A stretch of 63,354 nt of DNA, filler included, from Folioceros fuciformis (Eukaryota): assembly GCA_049999805.1 (NCBI GenBank). It is 17 parts of 17 records of this genome, joined end to end, with 100 filler letters (N's around TTAATTAATTAA, not from the genome) between each part and the next. Parts side by side here need not be neighbours in the genome. Positions count along the whole stretch, not along the records: positions 33,464 to 42,837 come from JBNGIO010000278.1; 16 more parts are not named here. One strand, 5' to 3'. The stretch's first letter is position 1. Each line of letters begins with the position of its first letter. The translations under genes and the position numbers were made by a program. Positions 1-42,937 of the stretch are shown piece after piece. The notes beneath the pieces were generated by a model. It worked only from the letters and a program-made list of their open reading frames with translations. It ran no database searches and had not been told where the DNA came from.

Positions 1-2488
1 TGCTGCACCTGAGGTAGACGTACTTCCCAATCTCCCCATTCTCATCCCCCTCTTGGAATGGAAGCCCCAAATACTTGTGGGTAGAGCCTTGCGTCACTCG
101 CTTGATGTGATGGATACATTGAGGAGGCTCTCCATCCAAGTGAAGACACATCATGCGCGTCTTACTCCAATTCACCTTGCAGCTAGATAGTTCACCAAAA
201 ACCTGGACCTGTTGGAGCAACGCTTTCAATGATGCCTTCTCAGCCGAAGAAAAAAGAAGAGTATCATCTGCAAATGTGGAGACCCTCAGTTGCGTTCCGT
301 CAGGGTTCCGAATACCCACCACTGTCGGGTCTTGCTTGATTGCTCTGAGAAAGAAGTCAGTGACGATGATAAATAAGAACGAAGCAAGAGGGCAACCCTG
401 ATGTATCGACCGAGAGATGCCAAAGCATTTTGTAAAAGACCCATTAACAGCCACTTTGGCTCCTGCGTCTTCAGTCAAAATGACTATCCATCTACAGAAA
501 TTATTGCCAAACCCGAAGCTACGCAAGCATCGCCACAAGAAATGCCATTCAACAAAATCATAAGCCTTGTAAAAGTCAAGGGAAATGAAAACGGTGGCTT
601 TCTCTAGTACCTGAGTGTTGTACTTCGCTTCCCTCAGCAGTAGTAAATTGTCTAGAATGCACCTATTCTAAATGAACCCTCGCTGCTCCTTCTCAATCCA
701 ATCATCAAGGAAGGGTGTAATTCGGTTAGCCGTACCTTAGCAATCACCTTGTACGTGGTAGTGAGCAAGGTAATCGGGCGCCAATTGGAGATTGATACAT
801 TGGCGTCTTGCTTAGGGAGTAGGGAGATAACCCCCATGTTGAACCACCTCCCCATACTACCTTCTTCCCAAAACATACTGACTGCTTCCATGAATAACAA
901 CTGCACAAAATCCCACCCCCAAAGCAAGAACTCGGGAGGGATACCATCAAGTCCTGGGGATTTGTCCCTCGGCATCCCCTTCAGGACCTGGAGCACCTCA
1001 TCAGCAGTTATCGGCTTATCCAAAGCCTTGTGCTGATCATCCGACACTTTAGCTGAAAGCGCACCATAAGAAGAAGACCAAAGCCTTTCCCACCCTGCTA
1101 CCTTCCCAACGCTAGAAAATATGCCAACAAAGAAGAGGGTAATAAGAGTTTTTAAACCTTCGAGCGATTCTTGCACCACGCCACGTGCGTCAGGGAGGGC
1201 AGGAATCCGTGTTCGATGTCGGTTGGAGGCCACCTTGTTGAAGAAAAATTTAGAGGGGCCGTCCCCCTCCCTCACTCACTTGACCTTGGCCCGCTTAAAC
1301 CAACCTCTAGCCCTGTCTTCTTCCAACTTGGCCAAAGCACATTGCACCTCCGTTTTCCTGGCCTCTTTCGCACTAGTGAGCTCCCGGTCCTTGCTGCTCC
1401 TCTATAACCAACACAAATCCTCCCTCAAAAAACGTTCTTGCTGACGTTGTTCTCTTGTTCGTTGAACCCCTAGCCTCCTCAAATACCTAGTCGCCTCGTT
1501 GTTAGCATATATCAATTTGACCGCCGCATTTTCCTCCCCCTGCTCAACTCCTTGCCAGATGGTTTTGATATCATCAAAAAACACCTTTTTCCTTCAGTAA
1601 GGATGTGTTCATCCGAAAGTTTTGCATATGCCTCCTTGGACGCTCAACCTTCGGGGCAAGCCTTAAGTGCAAGCTAATGGGGTGGTGATCGGAGAGTATT
1701 GTACCAGCGAGAATACTGTATGATTGTACAAAGCCCAACCACCCTGCAAGTATATAAAACCTGTCCAACCTACGCGCACCCAAATTCTATTGTTGTTGAT
1801 TGGACCAGCTGAAACACAAGGGCTGTGGTTGGCGATGAGTCGGGAGGGACACCCAAGGATCCTACACAGCCAGGACCGTGTCTCTCAACTCCTGCCAAGA
1901 CATAGGCACTGCCCGAATATCACCTGGGCTACCCCCTTGGATGTCCTCGCGGCGTTCAACAAAGTTGAAGTCGCCAGCCAGCATCCACGGAATCTGCTCA
2001 TCAAGCTGATCCCCTAGCCTGCACCAAAGCATACTCTTGTCGATGGCAGCATTAGGCGCGTAAATATTGTACATTCCAACTGGGCCTTGAGGAGTTTGCA
2101 ACACCTACCACACAAACCTCCCCTCCTCATCTTGCCCCGATTCCAGGATGTTCTGAGTTTGCTCTGGATGGATTGTAATGGACACTCCCCCGCGGGTTGC
2201 CAAAGATCGTTGGGAGGACCTTTCTTTATCACTTGTAGCCTCTGCTCTTGCTGCTGCCCATTCTGTTCGACCAGGAAGAAAGATCTTCTTCACTCTCTGG
2301 ATATGTTCCAAAGACAGTTTGTGCTCTTGCAAGCACACAACATCCCATGTGACTTCATCTTGTAGCAGGTTCTTTAGTCATCGACACTTCGACGCCGTCT
2401 TCGACCAACCTCCCAGACCCCTCACATTCCAGGAAATGATCCACAGCTGAGACCCCCTCTCATAATTCTTTAGAGTGTCGATACCCAT
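1..2488 (-). mobile_element. L1-clade LINE ORF2 (AP endonuclease + reverse transcriptase), disrupted by stops and frameshifts
   Basis: Minus-strand endonuclease motifs IISWNVRGL, CLQEHKL, NIYAPN, LAGDFN, RLDRFY and SDHHPI. RT motifs KSPGLDG, NWRPITLL, LDFYKAYD, QGCPLA and FADD (~260-275). Confidence 0.92.
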
Positions 2489-2695
2489 TTAGTGGGACTT
2501 GCTTGAGAGACGCCGGACAGCAGAGGGCTTAGTCATCCAAGCCCCCAACACTGACTTGGGCTGCGCCAAATGGTCCTTTGCTTTGAGCTCAAGGGACAAC
2601 CTTTGAAGCCTTTCAGATTTCCGCACAGCGGGGGCTTTCCTCCTGTCCTGACCAACTAAGAATCCCTCGACATCACCCACTGCCATGCTTGGACT
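2489..2695 (-). pseudogene. Probable 3' end of LINE ORF1
   Basis: Open frame ending in TAA (2491-2489) directly before the ORF2 ATG (2488). Basic C-terminus with no diagnostic domain visible. Confidence 0.5.
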
Positions 2696-2795
2696 NNNNN
2701 NNNNNNNNNNNNNNNNNNNNNNNNNNNNNNNNNNNNNNNTTAATTAATTAANNNNNNNNNNNNNNNNNNNNNNNNNNNNNNNNNNNNNNNNNNNN
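2696..2795. other. Artificial contig linker (44N-TTAATTAATTAA-44N), first of 16
   Basis: Identical 100-bp spacers start at 2696, 4860, 6981, 10559, 13296, 16275, 18190, 20344, 23488, 30886, 33364, 42838, 44981, 46603, 49929 and 61329. The 12-mer gives stop codons in all six frames. Confidence 0.98.
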
Positions 2796-2979
2796 GAGCT
2801 GGAGGGGAGCCCTCGAATCCATCATCGAGTTGATCAAGTCCGACCCTCCATCCACAGCAGCAAGGAACCCCATCGCTCCTTCGTGGGAACGAAACCCACT
2901 GTCTCAACGACAGTGGGATAAGTGTGGCCACTAAAGGTGGAACCCGTTGGCAATCAGTGCCCGGGGTTTTGCCTCCACA
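2796..2979. repeat. LTR terminus family A, copy 1 (ends ...GGTTTTGCCTCCACA)
   Basis: Highly similar to 10844-11027 and ~43015-43198. Similarity stops sharply at CA and the three flanks differ. Confidence 0.8.
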
Positions 2980-3452
2980 TAGATGTCAGTGATTTGCTTC
3001 CAAGCTTCAACAGATGTGAACACACCATCCTTGTGATGTAAGGTAACCTCGTCGAGGCTAGAGATCAACATTTACATAGCCTGTCGATCTTGACGAACCC
3101 AAGCATCAATGGCAGCCGGATTAGCGGAGGGCTTGGGAATGGTTCCTTCCACAATGGGGAGAAGATCCTGAGTGTTGAGCGTAGTCTTCATGCGCTTTGA
3201 CCACACCTCAAACTTCGTACCGTTAAATCTATCCTTTTCCTTGAAGTCAGTATTGATATTAACGATGTTGACGTAAGGTTGAAGTGGGGGAATACCAACT
3301 TGGGTCGGAGGCGGTGGGTTGCCTGCTGGGCCACCAGAAGGTGGTGGGTTGATGGTTTGCCCACCGGGAGGTGGTGTGGGTGGTGATGGGGGTCTGGATC
3401 CTGGCCTTGGAGACCTAAGAAGCCCCGACCCAAAGGTAGAAGCGCCTAACAT
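2980..3452 (-). mobile_element. Ty1/copia gag N-terminal fragment, cut by an LTR family A insertion
   Basis: Pro-rich start, then DRFNGTKFEVWSKRMKTTL...DLLPIVEG...AWVRQDRQAM*MLISSL...EAWKQITDI, typical of copia gag. Confidence 0.85.
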
Positions 3453-5224
3453 CTCTTGTGGATTTTAAACCAAAGCGTAAGCCAACGATACATTATGACA
3501 CAACGCCGAGAGTACGAGTGAAAGAAGAATCATAAGAGATTATGTAATAAAAGTATTACCCTTCGTCTTTTAGAATCCACCCACCACAGTTATTTCCTCC
3601 CTTGCTTCAAGTGATCTAAAGGAGAAGAGGAGGAGGCTCGGTGACTTCAGCCCTCTCAGAACTAGCAATCCCTTGAAATTCTTGAGTTTGGGTAGCCAAG
3701 TGGAGAAGATCTTCGTTGGCGTTGGCCACTTATTTCCAGAGAGCAAGAAGTCTGGCAGGCCATGTAGGTGGATCGAATGAACCAAGAGAGTCTCTAGACG
3801 AAGCATAAATTTCTTCAATGGATTTCCAGTGAGGATGCACCCGCATTGCCAAAACACGATGAGGAGGAGGCAAAGGATCGGCCTCGATCTTCACAGGTGC
3901 AAGGTTGAGTCCTTCTCCAGTCGAAGTCGTAGGAAAAACAGAGGTAAGTCCTTGCTGTGCCGGAAAATCGCCATGAAGGGGTGCCAACAAGTGTGAAGAG
4001 GCACAAAATGGAATCGGTTTGGAGCCCGTGCCAAAATCAGCCGCATTCACATTGGTGCGTGGATAAAACGAACCCACCTGCACGAAACGACGAGTTAAGA
4101 TGTCGTTTCGGGGTGTCGCACCGATTTGGGGGTCGCGCACCAATTCGCAGGTGCGTGCACCTCCCTGCGTGCAGGGTGACCGCCCTGGGCGCAGTGCTCC
4201 ACCGCGACCACAATGGCGACAGCACGCTCCTCGCTGAGTGCGTGCAGCCTCGCCCACTCTTGATGGTGGTCTGGCGTCAGTGCGCCCCAAAAAATTCCTT
4301 CCTCCTGTACAGGATTCAAACCAGATTGAGCTCCTGGCTTGCCGATTTGCCCGTGCACCTGAGCAGAAGCAAATCCACCATCATCCGAACAAATCCTCAT
4401 AGATCCTCGTCCTTCAGGATTAGAGAGGAGAGAATTATTGATTGTCTGCTCCTCAGGAAGTGGCAGAAGGCTCCAAGACGCCCAGGGGACATGAGCATCT
4501 TCTGAAAAACCGTGTTGAAGACAATCAACTGTTGGGCTTGATCTTGGGGTGCAACTGCAGGCACGGTTCCGATTGTGGCCAAGTGCTCGGGTCCTTATGA
4601 TAAGGTGGAGGTCCTCTCCAAAATTAGATCATGATTTGAAGCAAAATGGCCAGAATCCTCCCCAACAAAGATGCCAGAGAAAAGCTGGAGCTCTCTTGCC
4701 ACAGATTGCACCAACCTTGGTACGATTCGATGGGCAGCAATTGGGGTTGATCCAAGGCGAGTTCGCCTAGGCAATCGTGCATGAAGAAGACGGGGAGATC
4801 GAACAGTCTGGTGCCGTCTTCTGGCCATGATCGGGCTGGAATGTCGTGCGCGACGAATTNNNNNNNNNNNNNNNNNNNNNNNNNNNNNNNNNNNNNNNNN
4901 NNNTTAATTAATTAANNNNNNNNNNNNNNNNNNNNNNNNNNNNNNNNNNNNNNNNNNNNCCTGCGGCTGGGGCGCTTGCGGGGCCCTCTCTATGCTTGGG
5001 CCCTGGGATGGCCTGGCGCTGCTACTTCATGGCGCGCCACGCTGCGGGATGGTGCGGCAGTGCCATCTCACTACCCCGCTCCCGCTCTGTGCCGCTACTG
5101 CTGCCGCTTCTATGGCCTGCGCACGGCGGGGATGGAGCCCCTTCCACCCCAGGATGCCGCATACAGATTCACCCCAGTGCCTTCCTCACGGAGCACCTAC
5201 AACTATCACCCTTGCTCCAACCTT

Positions 5225-32762: not shown

Positions 32763-34335
32763 GCATTTTTTGCTTTTCCCCGTACGCTTCTTGACCCTCT
32801 GCCAGTGTCCTATGAATTTGGAACCTCATGACCAGTTTCTAGGTCAATAACATTGCCTAGTGCAGGCCGTTTGAAACTAGAGCCTAGCATGACACTTCCA
32901 AGCAGAGGCATTGAGAATGCTTGCTGCTCATGAGGGGAGCATCCTTGTGATATTTGTTGACTTGAAGGTTGGCTCCACGTCTAAGAGGACTGTTCAAAGT
33001 TGTAGCTTTGAACTGTTGACTCCCCTCCTAAGCCAAATAGATAACTTGAAAAAGTTTGGGAAGGTCGTCTTTGTAGTGAAGACTCACCACTATGACCTTG
33101 TTGCCTAGCCATAGCCAAACCTAAAAGCCTAGAAACCTGCCAAACTTGTTGAGATAGAGAGCTTGTTATGCCAAGCCAAGGTTAGCCAGAAACTTTAGAG
33201 AGCCCGTTGTGCCATCCAAAAATTTGATTGCCACTGAATACCTTGGAATTACCTCACAACAAGGCTGCAAGCGCGTGGCGACGATGGGCAGATCCCTACA
33301 CACAACACACACGAAGTGAAGGACTCGGCTCTTCGGCGGGCACTCTTCTGCGTGGCTCAACAGNNNNNNNNNNNNNNNNNNNNNNNNNNNNNNNNNNNNN
33401 NNNNNNNTTAATTAATTAANNNNNNNNNNNNNNNNNNNNNNNNNNNNNNNNNNNNNNNNNNNNGCGCATCTGTGTTTCGGCATGTGCAACTAAGTTGGTC
33501 TCGGAGTTTCTCATGATCGTGTTTGTCCGTAACTTAGCTCCGGTGCGAGCCAGCGTCTCAACTTACTACTTTCACGGTACGTCCTAACGTGAATCCCTTT
33601 TTTGCTTGCTGGCGATCTGCGACCTTCGGGCTCGGGGCTCCTGCTCATGGATTAGATTGTCTGCAGGAGGAGGACCTGATGGCGGAGAATCTCAAGCTGG
33701 ACGAGGCTAGGAAGCAGTAGCAGCTCAAGGCTGAGGCGCAGAGGGATGAGTCTCACTGCCACAAGGAGAGTGCAAGGAAGGTGAGTCACACGCCCCAGGC
33801 TCTTTCCGCCGCATTGGGTGAAACCCTAGTGTTGCAGGGAACGGGTAGAGCCACATGGCCTCCAGCTTGGTCTAGCCTTTCGAAGCAAGTGAAGCGCACC
33901 AAAATGTAGTGATTACCACTGCAGATCTAGACGACGCGATAGCATAAGAACGGGCCTTTGCTCGTATAAAAGATCATCCATCCCAAGCCACCTCCACCTG
34001 GCCGCACACAGACCCGCAGCTCAAGGTGGGAGGTTGCAAAACCTTGCTCCCTCAGGGGCAAGGCATTCAAAATCGAAGGACCAATGTTTTGTTCAACACG
34101 TCACCACTCTCGGAAGGTCGTATAGACACTTCAAGATAGTGCGAGGTTGCAAAATCCTACTCATCTTGGAGAGGTGCTGAGATCTGATGGAAGACGAAAG
34201 CGACCTAGGTGATTGATCTGGAACCCCACTCCCTGGACTTGAGTTGATGGACCACTTTGAAGCCAGAAACTATACCTTCCCGCGCTCTGTGGACACTCCT
34301 TAATTCCCAGGTGGAGACCCGACCCGACAAGACAA

Positions 34336-34390
34336 GTCGAGTCGAGTCGAGTCGAGTCGAGTCGAGTCGAGTTGAGACGAGACGAGACGC
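34336..34390. repeat. (GTCGA)7 microsatellite with a GACGA tail
   Basis: Seven perfect pentamers at 34336-34370, about 70 bp past the pectate lyase stop. Confidence 0.95.
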
Positions 34391-34441
34391 GCTATGGTAC
34401 AAGAGGTCAAGCTTCCTCTGAGTTGAGCTGATCTGAGTTGT

Positions 34442-36154
34442 TCAGAGGTGGAGGACACCAGATCTGGCAGTTAGAGCTGGTGTGAAGAACGGGGCAGCAC
34501 CAACGCTTCCGTAGTGTCCTTTGTCGTAGCCACCTGACGGGGCAAAGTAAGCGCCGTTGAGGAAGAGATCTTTGTTCGAATGACAGCTCCAGTGGCTCCA
34601 GCCGCCAGCCTCATGCTTGGTCACCTGCCAGATGAATTGAGGAACATTAGAGTAAGTGGGAAAACAAGAATTGTACAAAGGCTAGGAGGTGTGGCTCACC
34701 TGCTTAGCTCCTGCAGCCACATAGCGGTTGCCTTCGCTGAGAATGGTGGGATCTCCACTTCCACCAATTGCGTAGATGCCCCAACCATACGCATAGTCGT
34801 TGTTGATGACATGGAACTCGCCAAAGCGGCAGCGGGGCATCCTCTGCACGAGATTGGGTCCGAAGGTGTTGTAGGCAATGGTGACCTTCATATTCCTGTC
34901 GTCGGTGAAGGAATCGCTGTGACCCAGAAGCATCACCTGCGAGGACGAAGAGGGGCCAATTTATAAGCCAATCAAACAGCTGGAACCAGGAGAAGGGAGA
35001 GAGAAGAAGCCAAAGCAAAACATAAACCTTGTCGTGGTCGGAGAAATAGTTGTTGGAGATGGTGACGGCTGTAGAACCGTGGATGACATCAATGAGACCG
35101 TCAGCGGCGTGCCTGAGGGTGCAGTGGTCAATCCAAATGTGAGATCCTCCAAAGACAGTGATAGCATCCCCGTCAGAGCCACCCCGGTGGCCGGTGTGAG
35201 TGGTGTTGCTGATGACATCCCCGCTGTGGCCCGGAGCGCAGTTCTGAAAGGTGATGGACTCCACGATTACATGCGACACATACTGTAAGGTAAAACAGGG
35301 CGCTCCGTTGCCCACAGACACCTTCCTCCCGCGGCCGTCGATGGTCTTGTAGCCCTGGATGATGAGCTCGTTGTCGAGCTTGAGGTCCAAGTCCTTAGCG
35401 AAGATTATCCACAGCGGCTGAGGCTGGATGACGCCGTACCTGAGCGTCCCGGGGGCTGGGTTGACAGCGTCGTCGCCGCCGTCTGTGACGACGTAGTAGG
35501 CACCGCCTTTCCCTCCCGCAGCATCAGACCCGAATCCAACGGCGCAGTCTGCAAGCTTCTGCCTGTCGTCCTCCCAGTTGGGTCGCAGCCAGCAGTTGTC
35601 GATGGGATTGCCCTTCCCGTCTTTGCTACCACCCTTCGGAGGGGAGGGCACTGGGACACGGGGCTTCTTCTTCTTCTTCTGCACCTTCTTGCTTGTCTTG
35701 TTCTTCTTGGTCTTCGCCTTAGCGGACTTCTTCTTCTGCAGTCCCTCCATCGTGGAGAGCCTCCGCCACAGCACGGAACTTCTGCGCTTGCATCGCAACA
35801 GCCGGTGTCAACAACGTTTCTCCCGGATAAACGTTCGCCAAAAACCCACAAAAACCCACGAAAACCCACAAAAGCTACAAACCGGGCAAATGTTCTGGCC
35901 CCAAATTCCCTTTACCTCACGTCCTCATGACCATCCTCCTCCTGGTCGGCGACCTCCGAGTCAGTCCCGTTCCTGCTTCCGGTTGCAACCTCCAGCTCTT
36001 CCCCGACGACGTCCGCATCGGATTCCGCCTGCAGGTCGAGGTGCCCTACCCCAAGCTCCCGCTGGGCGACCGCCCCGAGGCGCAGGCACGAGGCGAGCAG
36101 CGGGAGGAGCAGCAGCACCGACCAGAGGGCGGTGAAGCACTTGACGCGCGACAT
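34442..36154 (-). CDS. Secreted pectate lyase (PL1 family), 4 exons, 470 aa
   Basis: Exons 36154-35916, 35781-35028, 34936-34700 and 34624-34442, all with GT-AG introns in consistent phase (1413 nt). Signal peptide, [36 protein letters not shown] and QRMPRCRFG. Confidence 0.95.
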
Positions 36155-37528
36155 GGCGGGAGAGGGAGAGCAGCAGGCCGGGTGATCCAAATCACCGGTG
36201 GGAGGGAGGCGCCGGCGTCACAAGTGCAGCATTGTGGACAGCAAGCGAGGCCGAGAAGAAGATACTGCGAGCAATCGAAGGGCATGTCCCGCTCTTGTAC
36301 CCCTCGCCTCGCTCAGCCTCCCCCTCAGCTTGCACGGACTGCAATTTGGATGTACCCAGCCAGGCCAACACGATTACGTAAGGTCAGATCAGGTCAGGTA
36401 AGGTCAGGCCAGGTCAGGAGAATCGAGAAGGAGACGTCTCCAACTGGAGACCGTCGGACGCGACCCAGCGGCTTGGCTGCTGTGATGCAACCTCCATATC
36501 CACGAGGAGCAAACATGGGCAGTGGAACGGCGAAATGCGTTAGCGCAACCCCGTCACCCATCCGGATTTGCTCCACCGGCTCCCGCTCTGCCCTTCCCTG
36601 TTCACACACTGTCATTTCTGGTTTTTTCTGCTCCCTTTCCTTTCCTGTCGGAGCGCCGAGGAGGAGGACGTACGAGGGTGCTGTACGTATTACGTATAAT
36701 ATCACCCAATCGTCTGCGTAGCCGTATGCCAGGGTCCCTTTAACCCCCTTCATATCTGTCATCCTGGAGCCCTGCCCCGGCCCGCCCTACGGCTCCTGCC
36801 AGACGACGTACGGAAGCACGCGGCGGCACTGGAACAACCGGCGGCAGCCGGTGGAGCCGCATGAGCGAGCTCTTGCACGCCGCGCTTTCCGTTCTCAACT
36901 GCCATAACTGTCAGTCCGTCAAGAGACGGGTTGCGCCTTTGGGGCCTGGGCAAAGCCCTTTGGGAATCAGACTACGCTTCATTTGTGAGTGGCCCGCGCT
37001 TAAGTCAAGCCCCCAGATTAACGTGTACACACGAAAACAAAAACTAAGCACATAAAAGATTCACTTAAAGTAGAGCATATCTATGTGATTACATTAAATC
37101 ATCTAGTTAAGTCTTTGCACTTTCTGGACCTCTATCTTTCCTTGTACGAAAACATAGTAGTGTGGAATCTCGGAGACATAAATGTGCTTTCACTTGATGT
37201 GCTCTTTTTTATTTCTCTTTCAATTCCTCCGCCAAAATCTGTATCTCAATGACTCTCCCTCTTTAGTTCCTTCTCGACAAATTCTCTCACACTTCCAACA
37301 ACCATTTGGAAGGACAATATAGACGATACTAGTTGTGCAACTTGCAGCTAGTAATCAAGAGCATTGTACGAAGTGGGAACAATTATCGATAGTTGCACAA
37401 GTACTAAAGCATTATGGGCATAAAGTACTTCAGGCATGTTGTACTCAAGCTTCACATCTGTGTTCCATCTCATAATCATAACATGGACCAATGACCCCAC
37501 TTGACTGTACGTGTATGCATTACCGAGA

Positions 37529-37867
37529 GCTTCACTTCATGTTGTCCATGTCCTTTGTAGTCGAGCGTCACTCCTTGTTGTCCTGTCCATGTCCTTTGTA
37601 GTCGAGCGTCACTCCTTGTTGTCCTTTTGTAGTCAAGCTTCACTTCACGATGTCCTTTGTAGTGAAGGCTCACTGCACATTGTCCTTTGTTATCAAGCTT
37701 CAACTCACAATGTTCTTTGCAATGGAGCCTCAATCTCTCTTCACATTGTCCTTCGCAATCGAGCCTCAACCTCACTTAACATTGCTCTTTGCAAACAAGC
37801 CTCAACCTCACACTACATTGTCCTTTGTAGTCAAGCCTCGACGTCACTTCACGTTGTCCTTTGCAAT
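37529..37867. repeat. Minisatellite with mostly 30- and 36-bp units (CTTCACATTGTCCTTTGTAGTCAAGC core), about 10 copies
   Basis: Recurring TGTCCTTTG...TC(A/G)AGC visible throughout the interval. Confidence 0.85.
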
Positions 37868-39777
37868 TTAAACCATAGACTGTGTACTTTTCTGTGTCAC
37901 GATGAACATTATGATGCCTTACATACTTTCTTTCAAAGAAGATCATATCTACCTACAAGAGCCACACTATCTCATAGTATGCATCCTCTAAGTAATTAAA
38001 TCATTAGCAAACACACTTCACAACATCTGTATTATTTCATACTTAGTGTCCTCTTCCCAATCCAAGCTTGGTTCCATTTGAGTGACATTTCAAATCTAAA
38101 AATTAAATGTATTGTATGTGACTATATGCTTATTGGTCTTGATGTTAAGACTTCCAACATTTTGAAGCATTCATCATTTGGTTTCTTAGACTCTATTTGG
38201 CACAAGCTCATTCTATCTCACAAGCAAGGACATCACTTTTAACTAAAATTCATCTCTTCTTGCTCTTCTTGGAAAACTGAAGACCTTTTAATTAAAATTC
38301 ATCTCTTCTTACTTTTCTGGGAAAACCGATGACAAGTTGATGACAAGTTGCAGTTGATGACAAGTTGCAGTCTGCTCTTACACTGAGACCATTCAACAAG
38401 TGCCTGCAAGACGTGAGTATAACAGTCCTTTGCCTTCAGGCAACAACCCTTGCTCAAGGAGCGAATTGGCAACACTTCCACGTATCAGAGTTGACGCCTC
38501 ACTCAATTCTTTCATATGCATTAAAATGAATAATCTAGACTGTGACAAGCCAGCCATTTAACCTGACCGTTTATCTCCGGCACAAGAGTCTTGACACAAC
38601 ACAAGTGCCGCAAAAGCAGCCCATAAGAATGATGAAAAAGGGGGGGACTTGAGCACACCTCCCATAGTTAGGTTTGCTACATTCCTCGAGGAGTCGTCCG
38701 ACAACCTCATCAGCAAAAAGTTTCGCAAGACAGATAAATTGCACTAGCTCTTCAAGGCGAATCATTGCAACGTTGCAAACCCGTGTGCCAGAGCATCATC
38801 ATCATAATCCACATACTGATTTGGGCACATGGACCGCGTCCATACTGTCTTTGCAGGTACCTGCCGTCAAAGCATCAGGTAACTACTTTCTTCCACGAGT
38901 GGAAACAAGCTTGAAGATGGCAGTGCCCGGATACGTCTCCCCAAGCGATGAGGTGATCACACAACCCTTGGCCTGATAACACAAACAGCTCAATTCCTCT
39001 TGCCAAGACCTGGCAGATAACCAGGAAGATGCCAAAACCTTTCCTTGTCCTCAGTCATTTGCATGTAACCAAGTTTACATAGGGGTTGGCTGGGGATGCG
39101 CTCACTTACTACCCACGACAACAGTTCTGAAATCAGCATGGGAAAGGATCTCCTTACCTTACCCTCAGCTGTTACAGGTGGTGCACATCATCTTCGTGCA
39201 AATGCTGCTTGACAAGTTGTTTCCATTTAAAGGCGACTAAGTGGGACAATTATGGATCGAAAGTCTTCAAAGTGTGCACTACCTGTCTCCCTAAGGCTTG
39301 GAACACATAAGCCTCACATTTGCATGCGGAAATGCAACATTTCCACATGCCTGAAGTGCAAGCGTGTAACTAAGGCAGACATCATTGGCAGGAGTCCGTC
39401 GATGAGACACAGCCACGGTGCTAATCTTTCCTGAGCTGTTGAAGTTCCAGCTTGCTTTCATTCTGTGTGATGTGAATGTGCTGTCTGTAAAGGGGACTGT
39501 TCCCCATCCAGCAAGTAGGCATTACCACAAAGAATGTGCCGCCTGTAGCATCAACTAGGATATCGTAGGCTCCATCTTTCTTCATCAGATAAAGCCCCCA
39601 GCACCTGCTGGTTTCCGAACTCTGTCGTTGCAGGTAGCACATGAAACACATCGCCATCGCCTTTTTCATGGTACACCACAAAACAGAGTGGATCCACGAA
39701 GGAACAAAACTCACCACCTGGACACTGGCCTTCGCGTTTTCGAGGTCACCAGCCGACCACTCGTTATTTTCTCGTTC

Positions 39778-42700
39778 TCACGGTCGGCCCTTGCAGCTGC
39801 AGAAGCCAGCTGCAAACCGATGCACACGGTGGGCATCCCTCACAACAATGTCTCTCTTCTCAACCCTGGACAAGACCTCAGTGGAGCTATGGCAGTCACT
39901 GCACATGCGTAAGTTCTTAGTCACCAGCAGAGGTGTGCCGCTGGGAGTGTGCAAGAGACCGTAGGCCAGAGCAAGCTTTTCAGCATGCCCGCAAAGCATG
40001 TCGTTCTTTTCCTTCTCAGACAGAGGCTTCAGCACCAGCTTTGTGTGGGGTGTGTGACCCCCATCCTGCTGCAGGCGGAGGTTCATGCTCGCTAATTTGA
40101 GGGAAATATCGTCCCTGGTTTCTCCAACCATGAATGTATGTACCTCGTTCTTGATCTCGATGCCTGCGACTGCAAGTTTCTTGTTGGCCCCTGCTGCTAT
40201 TCTCCGAGTTTCTATCCTTTCTACGTCTGTCCACCGACCTGCGTCTGCGTACACATTGGCCATGAGGACATATGCGGACGCCTGCTGGGGGTCCAAGCTG
40301 ACTAGGCTTTCAAAACACCGGGTCGCACGCTCGATGTCTCCGTGGCTTTTGCAAGCATTCAGCAGAGATGTCAAGCCCACGTCATTGTCTTGGCTTTCAC
40401 ATGACAGTAGCATCTTCTCTGCCTCAGCTAAATGGCCTGCACGCCCGAAAAGATCAATCATGCAGTTGTAGTGCGCCACAGTAGGTTTGATGCCGTGTTG
40501 TGCAACCATGGCTTCGAAGTACTTACGACCCTCTTCTACCAGGCAGTCATGACTGCATGCTATGAGAAGGCAAACGAACGTAGCATCGTCGGGCTCAATA
40601 CCGGCTGCTAACATCTCCTCAAAGCAAGCCAGGGCTTTTTGACCTTCCCCACAAGTTCCAAACCCGGATATCAGGGCTGTCCATGTCGCAACAGTCTTTA
40701 TGGACAAACTATCAAAAGCCCTACAGGCATCCTCCATTTCACCACATTTCGCATACATGTCCACAAGGCAGTTACCCAGCAGGATATCATTTTCTAGCTC
40801 TCCTCTCCCCGCGAGCTCTGAGTGCAGCTGCCTCCCAAGCTGTATGGCCCCGCCGCTTCCACAGGCCTTCAACAGGCCAGCAAAAGTACAGCGGTCAGCC
40901 AAAATCAGGCCCTCCTGTTCCATTTGTCCATACAGATCAAGTGCCTCTTGGCACAGTCCTTGCTGTGCATACCCTGCTATCAAAGCATTCCACGACCCAA
41001 CATCTTTTAGCGCCAAACTGTCAAAGACCTGGCGTGCATCTTCCAGTTCGCCACACTTGGCATACATGTCGACCAGGCAGTTGCCCACCAGCGTGTCATT
41101 TTCTAGCTGTCCTCTTTCTACGATCTGTAAATGCAGCTGCCTGCCCTCTCGTAAGGCACCAGTGCTCCCGCAGGCCTTGAGGAGGCAGGCAAAAGTAACA
41201 TGGTTAGCCAAAACCAGGCCCTCTTGATCCATTTGAGCATACAGATCAAGAGCCTCTTGGCAATGCCCTTTCTGTGCGTACCCACCTATCAGGGAGGTCC
41301 AGGTCACCACATCCTTTGAACCCAAACTGTCAAAGACCTTCCGTGCATCTTGGAGTTCGCCACATTTTGCATACATGTCCACCAGACAGTTGCCCACGAG
41401 AATGTCGCTCTGCAGCTGTCCTCCTTTCAGAATCTGCGAGTGCAGCTGCCTTCCCTCTCGTAAGGCACCAGTGTTGGCACACGCCTTCAGAAGGCAAGCA
41501 AAAGTGACATGGTTAGCCAACACCAGGCCCTCCTGCACCATTTGGCCATACACAACAAGAGCCTCCTGACACAGTCCTTGCTGTGCATACCCAGCTATAA
41601 GGGCGGTCCACGTCACCACATCTTTTCTTTCCAAGCTGTCAAAAACCCGGCGTGCTTCTTCTAGTTCGCCACATTTGGCGTACATGTCCACAAGGCAGTT
41701 GCCCACCACCAAGTCGCTTTGCAGCTGTCCTCTTTCAACTATTTGCGAGTGTAACTGTCTGCCTTCATGTAACGCACCAGTTGCTGCACATGCCTTCAGA
41801 AGGCAAGCAAAAGTGACGTGGTTCGCCAGAACCAGTCCCTCTCGCTCCATTTCTCCGTACAACGCAAGCGCCTCCGGACCCAGCCCATGATCTGCATACC
41901 CAGCTACAAGGGCAGTCCATGTCACCACATTCTTCGTGGACAAGCTGTCAAAAACCCGGCGTGCAGCTTCCAGTTCACCACATTTCGCATACATGTCCAC
42001 CAGGCTGTTCCCGATGAACATATTGGACTTAATACCACTGTGCAACACATCAGAGTGCACCTTTCTGCCAGATTCCAAATCGGCTGCAAGAGAACACGCT
42101 TGAAGAGCAGCTATGTAAACGTGGGCATCTGCCTTCACATCCGAGCTCCGCATCCTGTGGTACAATTGTATAGCCTCATCAGGTTTCCCGTGTTTAGCAT
42201 GTGCAGAGATTATGGAAGACCACATGAAGGTATCTGCTTTGCCCACCCTGGTGAACACATCCATGGCCTCTTCTAGCCGGCCTCCAGATGCATACATGCG
42301 CAAGATATGGTTCCCCAAGAATGTATTCGACTCATACCCAAGCTTCAGAGTCAGATCATGAACGCGTCGACCCGCAACCAGATCCTTCTTAGCGGCACAC
42401 AGTTTCAGCACATTATAGAACAAAGTCTGAGATAGAGGACACTCTGCATGCACCAACAATTCCAGGGCTTCCACAGCCTCAATGAGCTTTCCATCGTGAC
42501 ATAACGTGTTCACCATCCCTGTTGTTACGCAACCTGGCATATTTGCAAAGCTAGACTTGGAAGACGATGCACCATATCCTGTCTGCATATCCCAAGCAAT
42601 CAGCTGCTCATCCACCCAAGCCGGCTTGGAAAACCTGTCCAACCAGAGGACCTCGCCGGAACCCTTACGCCGGAAGTCAGGAGCACTGGCGCTCCTCTTC

Positions 42701-42837
42701 CCCCGCCTGTTATCCCACCACATGCTAGGGTCCAGAAAAAATTGCCGCCACAGTAGCTCCTGCTCCTGGCGCCGGCCATCGCTGGAAACTCCTTCCCCGG
42801 CTAAAGGTGTTCTGGAAAGCCCTGGGCTCCTTACACC
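39778..42837 (-). CDS. PLS-class PPR-E1-E2-DYW protein of DYW:KP/GRP type with an N-terminal OSB-like PDF motif; 5'-truncated by the gap
   Basis: Intronless frame open from the contig edge (42837) to TGA. About 21 P/L/S motifs, E1/E2, and a deaminase with HAEKLA, CSDCH and terminal CSCKGRP. LWRQFFLDPSMWWDNR...APDFRRK...LWL...PAWV precedes the PPR tract. Confidence 0.96.
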   Translation of the reverse strand, partial: GVRSPGLSRTPLAGEGVSSDGRRQEQELLWRQFFLDPSMWWDNRRGKRSASAPDFRRKGSGEVLWLDRFSKPAWVDEQLIAWDMQTGYGASSSKSSFANMPGCVTTGMVNTLCHDGKLIEAVEALELLVHAECPLSQTLFYNVLKLCAAKKDLVAGRRVHDLTLKLGYESNTFLGNHILRMYASGGRLEEAMDVFTRVGKADTFMWSSIISAHAKHGKPDEAIQLYHRMRSSDVKADAHVYIAALQACSLAADLESGRKVHSDVLHSGIKSNMFIGNSLVDMYAKCGELEAARRVFDSLSTKNVVTWTALVAGYADHGLGPEALALYGEMEREGLVLANHVTFACLLKACAATGALHEGRQLHSQIVERGQLQSDLVVGNCLVDMYAKCGELEEARRVFDSLERKDVVTWTALIAGYAQQGLCQEALVVYGQMVQEGLVLANHVTFACLLKACANTGALREGRQLHSQILKGGQLQSDILVGNCLVDMYAKCGELQDARKVFDSLGSKDVVTWTSLIGGYAQKGHCQEALDLYAQMDQEGLVLANHVTFACLLKACGSTGALREGRQLHLQIVERGQLENDTLVGNCLVDMYAKCGELEDARQVFDSLALKDVGSWNALIAGYAQQGLCQEALDLYGQMEQEGLILADRCTFAGLLKACGSGGAIQLGRQLHSELAGRGELENDILLGNCLVDMYAKCGEMEDACRAFDSLSIKTVATWTALISGFGTCGEGQKALACFEEMLAAGIEPDDATFVCLLIACSHDCLVEEGRKYFEAMVAQHGIKPTVAHYNCMIDLFGRAGHLAEAEKMLLSCESQDNDVGLTSLLNACKSHGDIERATRCFESLVSLDPQQASAYVLMANVYADAGRWTDVERIETRRIAAGANKKLAVAGIEIKNEVHTFMVGETRDDISLKLASMNLRLQQDGGHTPHTKLVLKPLSEKEKNDMLCGHAEKLALAYGLLHTPSGTPLLVTKNLRMCSDCHSSTEVLSRVEKRDIVVRDAHRVHRFAAGFCSCKGRP

Positions 42838-42937
42838 NNNNNNNNNNNNNNNNNNNNNNNNNNNNNNNNNNNNNNNNNNNNTTAATTAATTAANNNNNNN
42901 NNNNNNNNNNNNNNNNNNNNNNNNNNNNNNNNNNNNN

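Follow-up and report, generated by a model that had tools for sequence, protein, structure and literature searches.

A gene of the hornwort Folioceros fuciformis carries a PDF module, an element known from plant OSB proteins, in front of a PLS-type PPR tract, E motifs and a DYW domain of the GRP subtype. This fusion is real and recurrent, and it marks an old, apparently undescribed gene family of seed-free plants. We propose to group these genes as PDF-PPR, consisting of a presequence, one to three PDF modules, a short linker, a PLS array and an end formed by E motifs, a DYW:PG or a DYW:KP domain. The window gene, with a single PDF directly upstream of its PLS tract, belongs to this group.

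Gene structure and reading frame

The window, by which we mean the whole stretch of 63,354 nucleotides that was analysed, consists of 17 separate contigs joined by 16 artificial spacers. The PDF-PPR gene occupies the end of a contig of 9374 bases (33464-42837). Its frame (translation P0001) ends with a stop codon at 39778-39780 on the minus strand and is open to the physical contig end at 42837, so that the assembly lacks the true start codon (Table 1). The neighbouring contig was considered as the missing 5′ end and rejected, the frame not being continued there.

Table 1. Features of the PDF-PPR gene and its surroundings in the window
Feature	Position	Strand	Basis or remark
PDF-PPR-E-DYW:KP(GRP) gene	39778..42837	-	one stop-free frame, 1019 codons plus stop, 5′ end cut by contig end (translation P0001; Pfam)
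27 in-frame sense codons before motif, no Met (GVRSPGLSRTPLAGEGVSSDGRRQEQE)	42757..42837	-	translation
PDF module (residues 22-84)	42586..42774	-	aligned to OSB-only profile
51-residue motif core of the preliminary description (residues 29-79)	42601..42753	-	exact peptide
First in-frame ATG (Met39), inside motif (PS-M-WWDNR)	42721..42723	-	false start of ORF caller
Ser/Gly-rich linker (residues 85-107), poorly conserved	42517..42585	-	alignment A1: no conservation
PLS-type PPR tract, limits approximate	40345..42516	-	Pfam, 12-14 PPR stretches; motif anchors
Tandem DNA array, 309-bp unit, 4.2 copies, 79% matches	40705..42009	.	
E1/E2 motifs (residues 832-886)	40180..40344	-	Pfam E_motif 832-890
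DYW domain, KP class, GRP subtype, 133 residues	39781..40179	-	KKLAVAG, HAE, TKNLRMC, CSDCH, SSTEVLS, C-terminal GRP
Artificial contig spacer (N run, TTAATTAATTAA, N run), not biology	42838..42937	.	

The preliminary description of this locus had noted that the frame is open for 38 codons above the called Met and that the start chosen by the ORF caller splits the motif. Both observations are correct: 38 in-frame sense codons precede the Met, which is residue 39 and falls within PS-M-WWDNR. The 51 residues quoted there were likewise recovered as the exact peptide on the minus-strand translation. Translation from Met39 would remove the first third of the PDF module.

In complete PDF-PPR loci a basic, acid-poor presequence of 55-95 residues is found before the motif. 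By analogy, the 27 codons upstream of the window motif are probably the tail of such a presequence, with the start codon beyond the contig end. The locus is an intronless nuclear gene whose 5′ end was lost to the assembly. No poly(A) tract, which would be the signature of a retrocopy, was found in the 580 nt that follow the stop codon, and an Rfam search of the window gave no match.

Pfam identifies PPR repeats (2.2e-100), an E_motif (2e-13) and a DYW_deaminase domain (PF14432, 5.3e-34) in P0001, and its tandem P-L-S motifs followed by E1/E2 place it in the PLS class. Five P1-L1-S1 triplets of 103 residues each lie at residues 203-718; the 309-bp tandem array in the DNA represents recently duplicated triplets of this kind within the gene. 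The linker separates the PDF motif from the first PPR-like helix pair. As had been claimed, the motif is in frame with the PPR tract, about 23 residues upstream of it, with the E motifs and the DYW domain following.

The N-terminal segment is an OSB-type PDF module

The PDF motif is described in the OSB literature as a 50-residue element that is responsible for ssDNA binding and, in OSB1, sufficient for it. Against a profile made exclusively from OSB-type proteins (192 PDF instances from 79 proteins with an SSB-like OB domain), residues 22-84 of P0001 score 71.4 bits (E 2e-24 for one sequence), whereas 2000 shuffles of this segment reach 11.6 bits at most. In 15 columns the OSB-type motifs (188 instances) are conserved to at least 80%, and the window motif has the consensus residue in all 15. 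In an hhalign comparison, a profile including the window segment matched 16 single-PDF OSB-type proteins, 14 of which carry Pfam SSB (PF00436), at 99.9% over 77 columns (E 4.8e-33). Within the family (alignment A1), W40, D42, R44 and W74 are invariant and L29, W30, F34 and P37 nearly so. Judged by its sequence, the segment, which lies at the mature N-terminus, is a true PDF module with homology to those of plant OSB proteins; this confirms the OSB-type match proposed earlier.

Pfam reports no family at E<=10 in the N-terminal 130 residues of P0001 and none in P0004, a protein with five PDF copies. Because Pfam holds no PDF model, the module is invisible to domain-based surveys. Among solved structures, a single-sequence PDF query gave chance-level matches only (best E 0.18) and a profile gave none at E<=1.

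We also considered that the fusion could be an artefact, either of a chimeric contig or of a region above Met39 that is untranslated, with the resemblance to PDF lying only downstream. The contig does end 27 codons above the motif with no start codon, and a 38-codon stretch is open by chance in about 16% of cases. Taken alone, these 38 codons match profile positions 5-21 with a weak 7.0 bits, yet above all of 2000 shuffles (maximum 5.9). However, 59.9 bits of the PDF match come from the part beyond Met39, which is translated either way. Furthermore, a 386-base contig of sequencing run X1 spans 42294-42679 without a difference and so joins motif, linker and first PPR, although it may come from the same sample as the window. 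With the same architecture in at least four named species and 17 metagenome gene groups (below), an artefact is very improbable.

The DYW domain is of the GRP subtype

Published definitions of the DYW:KP/GRP domain include a KP box, Ala or Cys in place of Ser next to the catalytic His (HAE), a length of 132-133 residues with the xHP insertion missing, NLRMC, Lys88, a GRP end and Glu at the K103 position. The domain of P0001 comprises 133 residues from K887 to the end, is without xHP and shows a 4-residue gap relative to two PG-type domains. Its zinc motif consists of HAE at residue 951 and CSDCH, and Ala instead of Ser follows the catalytic His (HAEKLA). The equivalent of the active-site Lys88 is found 22 residues past the Ala of HAE in TKNLRMC, where PG types have NLRVC. 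Four residues past CxxCH, at the K103 position, P0001 has Glu, compared to Lys in the other three domains examined, and its C-terminus reads CSCKGRP.

The KP dipeptide itself is replaced. The box of P0001 reads KK-L-AVAG, with Leu at the expected Pro (K-L instead of the Lys-Pro of the class), which is not PG either; its relative P0174 has KMPA in this box and PG types KQPG or KEPG. By the published features, we classify the domain as a GRP-subtype DYW:KP domain. The earlier assignment as a GRP-type candidate U-to-C editing factor is thereby upheld through HAE, Lys88, length, Met, Glu and GRP.

The window protein thus resembles the DYW:KP GRP proteins, the candidate U-to-C factors of hornworts, from its PLS and E1/E2 parts to its HAE, Lys, CxxCH and GRP elements, and also in the lost xHP and the Glu for K103. 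According to the published reports, U-to-C editing has been shown only for consensus designer proteins, with 22-26% for the GRP-based KP2 and KP3 in E. coli, and natural KP proteins are described as being of unknown activity. Unlike P0001, these designer proteins are built from consensus PLS and C-terminal domains. The published accounts of KP proteins that we consulted mention no N-terminal PDF.

PDF-PPR genes in lycophytes and ferns

An exhaustive phmmer search with a 72-residue piece against 1.84 billion representatives gave 625 matches at E<=1e-3 and 154 at E<=1e-10, whereas word-indexed searches with this piece and with residues 18-95 of P0001 returned none owing to the limits of the index. 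The best 150 of the 625 matches divide into 79 proteins with an SSB-like OB domain, 11 with PPR repeats and 60 that lack both. For 30 of these 150 we retrieved the source name; one match is named ‘protein OSB1, mitochondrial-like’, and Pfam SSB was confirmed in P0011, P0025 and P0027.

PDF-PPR proteins are found in Diphasiastrum, Selaginella and Adiantum, together with three Pteridium transcriptome ORFs, i.e., in at least four named species. Since the Pteridium ORFs carry the fusion, the fused frame is transcribed in that fern. In addition, 42 of 80 metagenome loci are PDF-PPR genes, falling into 17 gene groups at >=90% identity; among them, Pfam confirms PPR, E and DYW domains. The subfamily is old, with members in lycophytes, ferns and unassigned plant contigs.

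The preliminary description had tied the PDF to reverse editing and had suggested comparing its co-occurrence with KP/GRP and PG domains. This comparison does not bear the idea out. No KP domain is found in the 42 metagenome loci, most of which end in E motifs: 35 are without DYW, 4 run off the contig, and 3, all of one gene group, have DYW:PG (PG box, HSE, CSCRDYW). None of the 11 PDF-PPR representatives among the best 150 matches has any DYW domain, which leaves the window gene as the only KP case in the genes surveyed (11 representatives, 42 metagenome loci). We therefore rejected a motif specific to reverse editing. The PDF belongs to the N-terminal part of a PLS-PPR subfamily in general, and its combination with KP/GRP is one instance.

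E-type factors need a deaminase in trans. The PDF could be a protein-protein or oligomerisation module that self-associates or recruits an OSB protein or another PDF-PPR, and E-type members could use it to borrow a deaminase. The scarcity of DYW domains fits such a role, as do long tandem PDF arrays that occur without other domains and published statements that OSB2 and OSB3 are tetramers. Nonetheless, we consider this role improbable: the OSB oligomerisation is not assigned to the PDF in those sources, and the window protein has its own DYW yet keeps the PDF.

A separate search with residues 1-220 of P0001 gave 8 matches, amongst them P0005 with three PDF motifs and P0169 with a degenerate one. 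For P0124, an odd PDF protein, the prokaryote genome and viral collections yielded no relatives, and it matches no Pfam or PHROG family.

Shared descent and selection

A phase-0 intron lies directly past the Lys of WWDNRxxK, with GT donors and with AG acceptors five codons before PDF. The same site is used in PPR-linked loci (L015, L018, L020, L029 and L033) and in multi-PDF loci without PPR (L076, L077 and L080), and 33 of the 42 PPR-linked metagenome loci are classed as split by this intron. Because the position is common to both, PPR-linked and OSB-type PDF appear to share descent. The window motif is uninterrupted, which fits intron loss.

On a phylogenetic tree, 5 label changes suffice to account for the 18 PPR-linked motif instances, compared to 17.1 with shuffled labels (none of 500 shuffles as low), and the five rows nearest to the window motif are all PPR-linked. 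A constraint that unites the PPR-linked motifs in a single clade is not rejected (p-AU 0.92) and gives the tree of higher likelihood. These motifs also have their own signature, FFsDPSqWWDNR, compared to Lf.NP..WWDNR in the OSB type.

The PDF part of the PDF-PPR subfamily is under purifying selection: of 120 pairs formed by 16 PPR-linked PDF coding sequences, 118 have a pN lower than their pS, and dN/dS has a median of 0.164 over the 83 pairs that are not saturated. The PDF of the window gene could also be an inherited relic, once functional in the ancestor of the subfamily and now neutral baggage. The module can decay, as P0169, a close relative of P0001 over the first PPR repeats, retains the first half of the motif only. 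On the other hand, the window copy keeps every one of the 15 highly conserved positions and the family evolves at a dN/dS of about 0.16, so a relic is distinctly improbable.

Possible roles of the module

With about even confidence, we favour a reading of the PDF in the PDF-PPR subfamily as an in-cis single-strand clamp beside the PPR footprint. The module would keep the OSB activity, which is to bind single-stranded nucleic acid whatever its sequence. The N-terminal repeats of a PPR tract face the 5′ side of the bound RNA; the PDF would therefore lie upstream of the footprint that about 21 repeats make, on the 5′ side of the target uridine and roughly 25 nt or more away from it. There it would most likely clamp ssRNA next to the specific footprint, either raising affinity or keeping the site unfolded. 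Such a clamp would be an accessory of the whole subfamily and not a reverse-editing device.

The ligand preference of OSB proteins speaks against this reading. A review states that OSB1 and OSB2 prefer ssDNA over dsDNA or RNA, which would favour a DNA ligand over an RNA clamp, and a Kd of 8.6-11.7 nM is reported for AtOSB2 on ssDNA. It is possible, if on the unlikely side, that the PDF binds organelle ssDNA in transcription bubbles, R-loops or replication intermediates and that editing is co-transcriptional. As the main reading of the preliminary description had it, an ssDNA tether would concentrate the editing factor where nascent RNA emerges. The window motif with its full set of conserved OSB residues is consistent with such a tether, and PPR proteins with a DNA-binding accessory domain are on record, for example in Physcomitrium, where a SAP domain is listed among the extra domains and At3g04260 (pTAC3, ‘light-dependent transcription’) is given as an Arabidopsis homologue. 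However, one PDF copy in a monomeric PPR protein could be a far weaker binder than the tetrameric OSB2, and the ligand preference may have shifted in a subfamily with its own signature.

Beyond the single-strand clamp, PDF-PPR might be a large, ancient and unrecognised class of organelle editing factors of seed-free plants in which a built-in single-strand binder plays the part of the separate MORF-type helpers of seed plants or couples editing to nucleoid transcription, the module having been lost towards seed plants. We regard this as doubtful. If true, the loss would explain why no model angiosperm has revealed PDF-PPR, and adding a PDF could improve weak synthetic U-to-C editors. For tool building it matters that the published GRP designer editors reach their modest efficiency without any N-terminal module.

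Comparison with known proteins

With OSB proteins, the window protein shares a PDF of about 50-60 residues (15/15 conserved residues, 99.9% in the profile-profile comparison), and the intron site inside the module is common to its PDF-PPR relatives and non-PPR PDF genes. In OSB proteins, an SSB-like OB fold comes first, 1-5 PDF copies follow at the C-terminal side and PPR repeats are absent, whereas P0001 has a single N-terminal PDF and no OB fold, then PPR-E-DYW. PPR-linked motifs also cluster apart from OSB motifs. Pfam finds no SSB/OB family in P0001 or its N-terminal 130 residues, 27 of which precede the motif on the contig. We rejected an identification of the window gene as an OSB gene on the missing OB fold.

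PPR4, with an N-terminal RRM, and the SAP-domain PPR protein (Arabidopsis homologue pTAC3) likewise combine a PPR tract with a general nucleic-acid-binding module in one chain. Unlike P0001, both are described as P-type proteins of splicing or transcription, with extra domains that Pfam recognises. The extra domains given for Physcomitrium PPR proteins are RRM, LAGLIDADG, SMR, NYN, CBS and SAP, and the published lists of extra PPR domains that we consulted do not include PDF.

MORF/RIP proteins have no homology with PDF. A MORF is a separate polypeptide of unrelated fold, which binds the PPR tract and not nucleic acid. Any likeness would be one of function and is speculation, namely as a non-specific helper that improves RNA binding by the PLS tract, as described for MORF. 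The earlier statement that MORF is absent from seed-free plants is contested, as a 2025 report describes MORF homologues in two ferns (PMC12561531).

Implications

PPR editing factors are usually drawn with a transit peptide first, then the repeat tract, then an E or DYW part at the C-terminus. An N-terminal module of the ssDNA-binding type that is conserved and under selection changes the working model of substrate encounter for a whole editing-factor subfamily, in lycophytes and ferns and, judging from the GRP domain, also in hornworts. A full-text literature search found no PDF-PPR fusion in print, though a mention in class-defining papers or supplements is possible. The earlier remark that the fusion lacks functional characterisation thus stands, and the search found no description of it either. 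Its role can be put to the test directly, since Anthoceros is open to transformation and E. coli offers an assay for editing factors. For OSB biology, the PDF has had another career of its own beyond the OSB family, including in Selaginella, where one survey lists no OSB gene.

Structure of the PDF-PPR gene

The window is made up of 17 contigs of 1.5-11.3 kb, and each of its 16 joints consists of TTAATTAATTAA flanked on both sides by N runs (at 2740, 4904, 7025, 10603, 13340, 16319, 18234, 20388, 23532, 30930, 33408, 42882, 45025, 46647, 49973 and 61373). Features near the joints, including the apparent start of the PDF-PPR gene, are cut by the assembly, and contigs that adjoin here may lie apart in the genome.

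The candidate editing factor (P0001) is encoded by a single minus-strand frame of 1019 residues, which is open from the last base of its contig to a stop codon at 39778-39780. The minus-strand translation of 42601-42753 is identical to the 51 residues quoted in the preliminary description. As stated there, 38 sense codons precede the first in-frame Met (residue 39), and the start chosen by the ORF caller splits the motif, since this Met sits in its middle. With the first Met mid-motif and the frame open to the contig end, the 5′ end of the gene has been lost to the assembly; the frame is not continued in the next contig of the window. Contigs from three related organisms extend around 500 nt past the contig end of the gene.

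Using Pfam, we found PPR repeats (PF01535, 14 stretches, E = 2.2e-100), an E motif at residues 832-890 and a DYW deaminase domain at residues 927-1017 (E = 5.3e-34), while the N-terminal 130 residues match no Pfam family even at E≤10. The PPR motifs follow a regular PLS order and include five P1-L1-S1 triplets of 103 residues each, which at the DNA level form a tandem array (Table). Duplication of entire triplets is recent and makes the RNA-recognition tract partly repetitive. The entire window contains only this one PPR gene and one PDF motif. On the same contig, frame breaks in an ORF matching pectate lyase suggest introns, and the presence of such a gene identifies the contig as plant nuclear DNA.

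Table. Coordinates of the contig carrying the PDF-PPR gene and of features on it
Feature	Position	Strand	Remarks
Contig bearing the PDF-PPR gene	33464-42837		Gene at the high-coordinate end
Tandem array inside the gene	40705-42009		309-bp unit, 4.2 copies, 79% matches; equals the PLS triplets
Exon-sized ORF, pectate lyase match	34704-35807	-	PF00544, 3.4e-08; same contig as the PPR gene

The N-terminal segment is an OSB-type PDF motif

An exhaustive phmmer search of 1.84 billion representative proteins with the 72-residue piece containing the motif gave 625 matches at E≤1e-3, of which 154 reach E≤1e-10, and many proteins match repeatedly, in 2-13 places. Among the best 150 of the 625, an SSB-like OB domain precedes the motif copies in 79 and PPR repeats follow the motif in 11; the other 60, tandem motif arrays and fragments, have neither. 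Of seven OSB-like proteins examined with Pfam, three were confirmed to contain the SSB family (PF00436) and one matches it weakly; it was also confirmed in 14 of the 16 single-motif members of A3, an alignment of single-PDF OSB-type proteins. One match carries the source name 'protein OSB1, mitochondrial-like', and the accessible text of reviews describes OSB proteins as an OB-like domain followed by 50-residue ssDNA-binding PDF motifs.

We built an OSB-only profile from 192 motif instances in the 79 OB-bearing proteins. Residues 22-84 of P0001 score 71.4 bits against it (E = 2e-24), compared to 11.6 bits for the best of 2000 segment shuffles. At each of the 15 columns with conservation of 80% or more among 188 OSB-type instances, the window motif agrees with the consensus, and comparison of a profile that includes this motif with the OSB-type profile gives 99.9% probability. 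The proposed assignment to the PDF motif is thus borne out. The part upstream of Met39 scores a weak 7.0 bits on its own, yet more than all 2000 shuffles, and includes four near-invariant family residues (L29, W30, F34 and P37).

PDF-PPR proteins in lycophytes, ferns and metagenomes

In the 11 PPR-bearing representatives among the best 150 of the 625 matches, the motif is N-terminal and lies 15-40 residues before the first repeat. Sources were looked up for 10 of the 11 and include the lycophytes Diphasiastrum complanatum (two) and Selaginella moellendorffii (one) and the ferns Adiantum capillus-veneris (two) and Pteridium aquilinum (three transcriptome-assembly ORFs). Two more short matches, P0115 and P0121, have PPR-like sequence behind the motif, and the source name of P0115 is that of a PPR protein. 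A DYW domain is absent from all 11, the long ones of which terminate in E motifs.

Scanning metagenome contigs with the pattern Fx[DN]PxxWWDN yielded 202 stretches, of which 125 were confirmed and 80 loci kept. PDF and PPR occur together in 42 loci (17 groups at ≥90% identity), OB and PDF in nine, and PDF alone or as fragments in 26; three have no PDF above the classification threshold. The reading frame ends without a DYW domain in 35 of the 42 PDF-PPR loci and runs off the contig in four. The other three, which form one group (L029-L031), have a canonical DYW:PG end with KKQPGRTWIEV, HSE and CSCRDYW (Pfam DYW, 6.2e-43), and a KP-type end is found in none of the 42. In complete loci, the motif is preceded by a presequence of 55-95 residues, basic overall and poor in acidic residues, that from its composition looks like an organelle transit peptide.

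RefSeq annotates the PDF-PPR protein of Selaginella moellendorffii (P0105, XP_024517303) only as a PPR protein, and the accessible part of one survey lists no OSB gene for Selaginella. Accordingly, the PDF module can persist in a genome via PPR genes alone.

P0169, a 797-residue relative with 43% identity to the window protein over residues 1-220, exemplifies decay of the module: it retains LWYEFFSDPTQWWDSRRN, while the PDF core and second half are gone. On one metagenome contig (L047), two PDF-PPR genes lie head to head at 56-1882 (-) and 2295-3998 (+), suggesting local duplication. In all four sequencing runs concerned (X1, X2, X5 and X19), the summed contig depth of the PDF part (42608-42775) is 100 to around 2000 times that of the linker (42440-42565), and loose ends read as further WWDNR-type sequences. 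Contig depth gives no copy number and only hints at many PDF-coding paralogues (≥85% nucleotide identity) in the source and related organisms.

Full-text literature searches returned no description of a PDF-PPR fusion within searchable text, in line with the preliminary description, whose author knew of no functional characterisation; the motif's own letters gave no relevant match. [quoted passage not shown] A review of 107 Physcomitrium PPR proteins names, in the part available, RRM, LAGLIDADG, SMR, NYN, CBS and SAP as additional domains.

Common descent and selection

In 33 of the 42 PDF-PPR metagenome loci the motif is split over two reading frames. The first part ends at the Lys codon of WWDNRxxK, directly followed by GTA or GTT, and the second starts five codons ahead of PDF, behind TAG or CAG. 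The split marks a phase-0 intron. An intron of identical position and phase occurs in the non-PPR loci L076 (two motifs), L077 and L080, which are OSB-like by motif consensus only, their short contigs excluding the OB domain. The window gene has no such intron in its motif.

We computed a tree of 128 motif instances, comprising all 18 PPR-linked motifs, 60 drawn at random from 188 OSB-type motifs and 50 drawn likewise from 176 others. As the alignment has only 63 columns, most forks are unresolved. The PPR label requires 5 changes compared to 17.1 when labels are shuffled, and none of 500 shuffles is as low; the five nearest rows to the window motif are all PPR-linked. A single clade of PPR-linked motifs is not rejected by the AU test (p = 0.92); the tree constrained to it exceeds that of the quick free search by 52.8 log-likelihood units.

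Nei-Gojobori counts for 16 PPR-linked PDF coding sequences (the window and 15 locus representatives, among them L002, partly overwritten by a second degenerate piece) give a mean pS of 0.64 and a mean pN of 0.20. Of 120 pairs, 118 have a lower pN than pS, and the 83 pairs in which pS is unsaturated have a median dN/dS of 0.164; selection therefore keeps the module within PPR genes. That the module is a relic is very improbable.

The deaminase domain is of the GRP type

The literature, as far as its text is accessible, defines DYW:KP domains by KP for PG in the N-terminal box, Ala or Cys for Ser in HxE, absence of xHP at a length of 132-133 residues, Met at the Val95 position and variable C-terminal triplets. 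Lys88 is conserved and reported to be essential for U-to-C editing. Hornwort variants are given as GRP and DRH, with K103 changed to Glu in the GRP group. The window domain has 133 residues, HAE, the conserved lysine and NLRMC, carries Glu in place of K103, ends in GRP and shows a 4-residue gap relative to two PG-type domains; its KP pair reads K-L. By these published characters its sequence classifies as GRP-type KP with one deviation, K-L, in agreement with the preliminary description. A domain of this type is indicative of a hornwort source. Natural KP proteins are described as uncharacterised in the text available, which reports 22-26% U-to-C editing in E. coli for consensus designer proteins of the GRP subtype.

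The PDF-PPR-DYW:GRP architecture originally proposed for the window gene therefore stands. Its link to reverse editing does not: E-only, PG and KP ends are all found together with the module, which is thus no adaptation to reverse editing. There is also no sign of the deaminase being directed to DNA. A better description of the window gene is as the first KP/GRP member to be recognised in an old and overlooked subfamily, PDF-PPR. The statement in the preliminary description that seed-free plants lack MORF proteins is called into question by a 2025 report, in its accessible part, of MORF homologues in two ferns (PMC12561531).

Possible function of the PDF module

PPR tracts bind RNA in parallel, with N-terminal repeats toward the 5′ side, which would place the module 5′ of the footprint of around 21 repeats. 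The architecture, homology, age and selective constraint of PDF-PPR proteins are established. We infer that the module most likely binds single strands independently of sequence and would aid the specific PPR tract in cis. Its ligand may be flanking RNA, which we prefer, or organelle ssDNA at sites of transcription, as favoured in the preliminary description. [quoted passage not shown] The preference of OSB1 and OSB2 for ssDNA over RNA, reported in the same partial text, speaks for the ssDNA ligand, which we nevertheless consider rather unlikely. A role of the module as a protein-interaction element instead of a single-strand binder seems improbable.

Other PDF proteins

Four sequences of around 185 residues (P0124, P0146, P0118 and the metagenome locus L052) have one good C-terminal PDF motif, preceded by an N-terminal part that resembles neither OSB nor PPR proteins. 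These sequences match no Pfam or PHROG family, have no relatives in prokaryote-genome or viral collections, and may be non-plant. P0046 and P0067, with the source names kinesin and ICR2, look like merged gene models. Long tandem PDF arrays of 9-11 copies without an OB fold are found in P0003, P0008, P0009 and P0014, and the array of P0002 (Kingdonia uniflora, 1160 residues) has 13 matched stretches.
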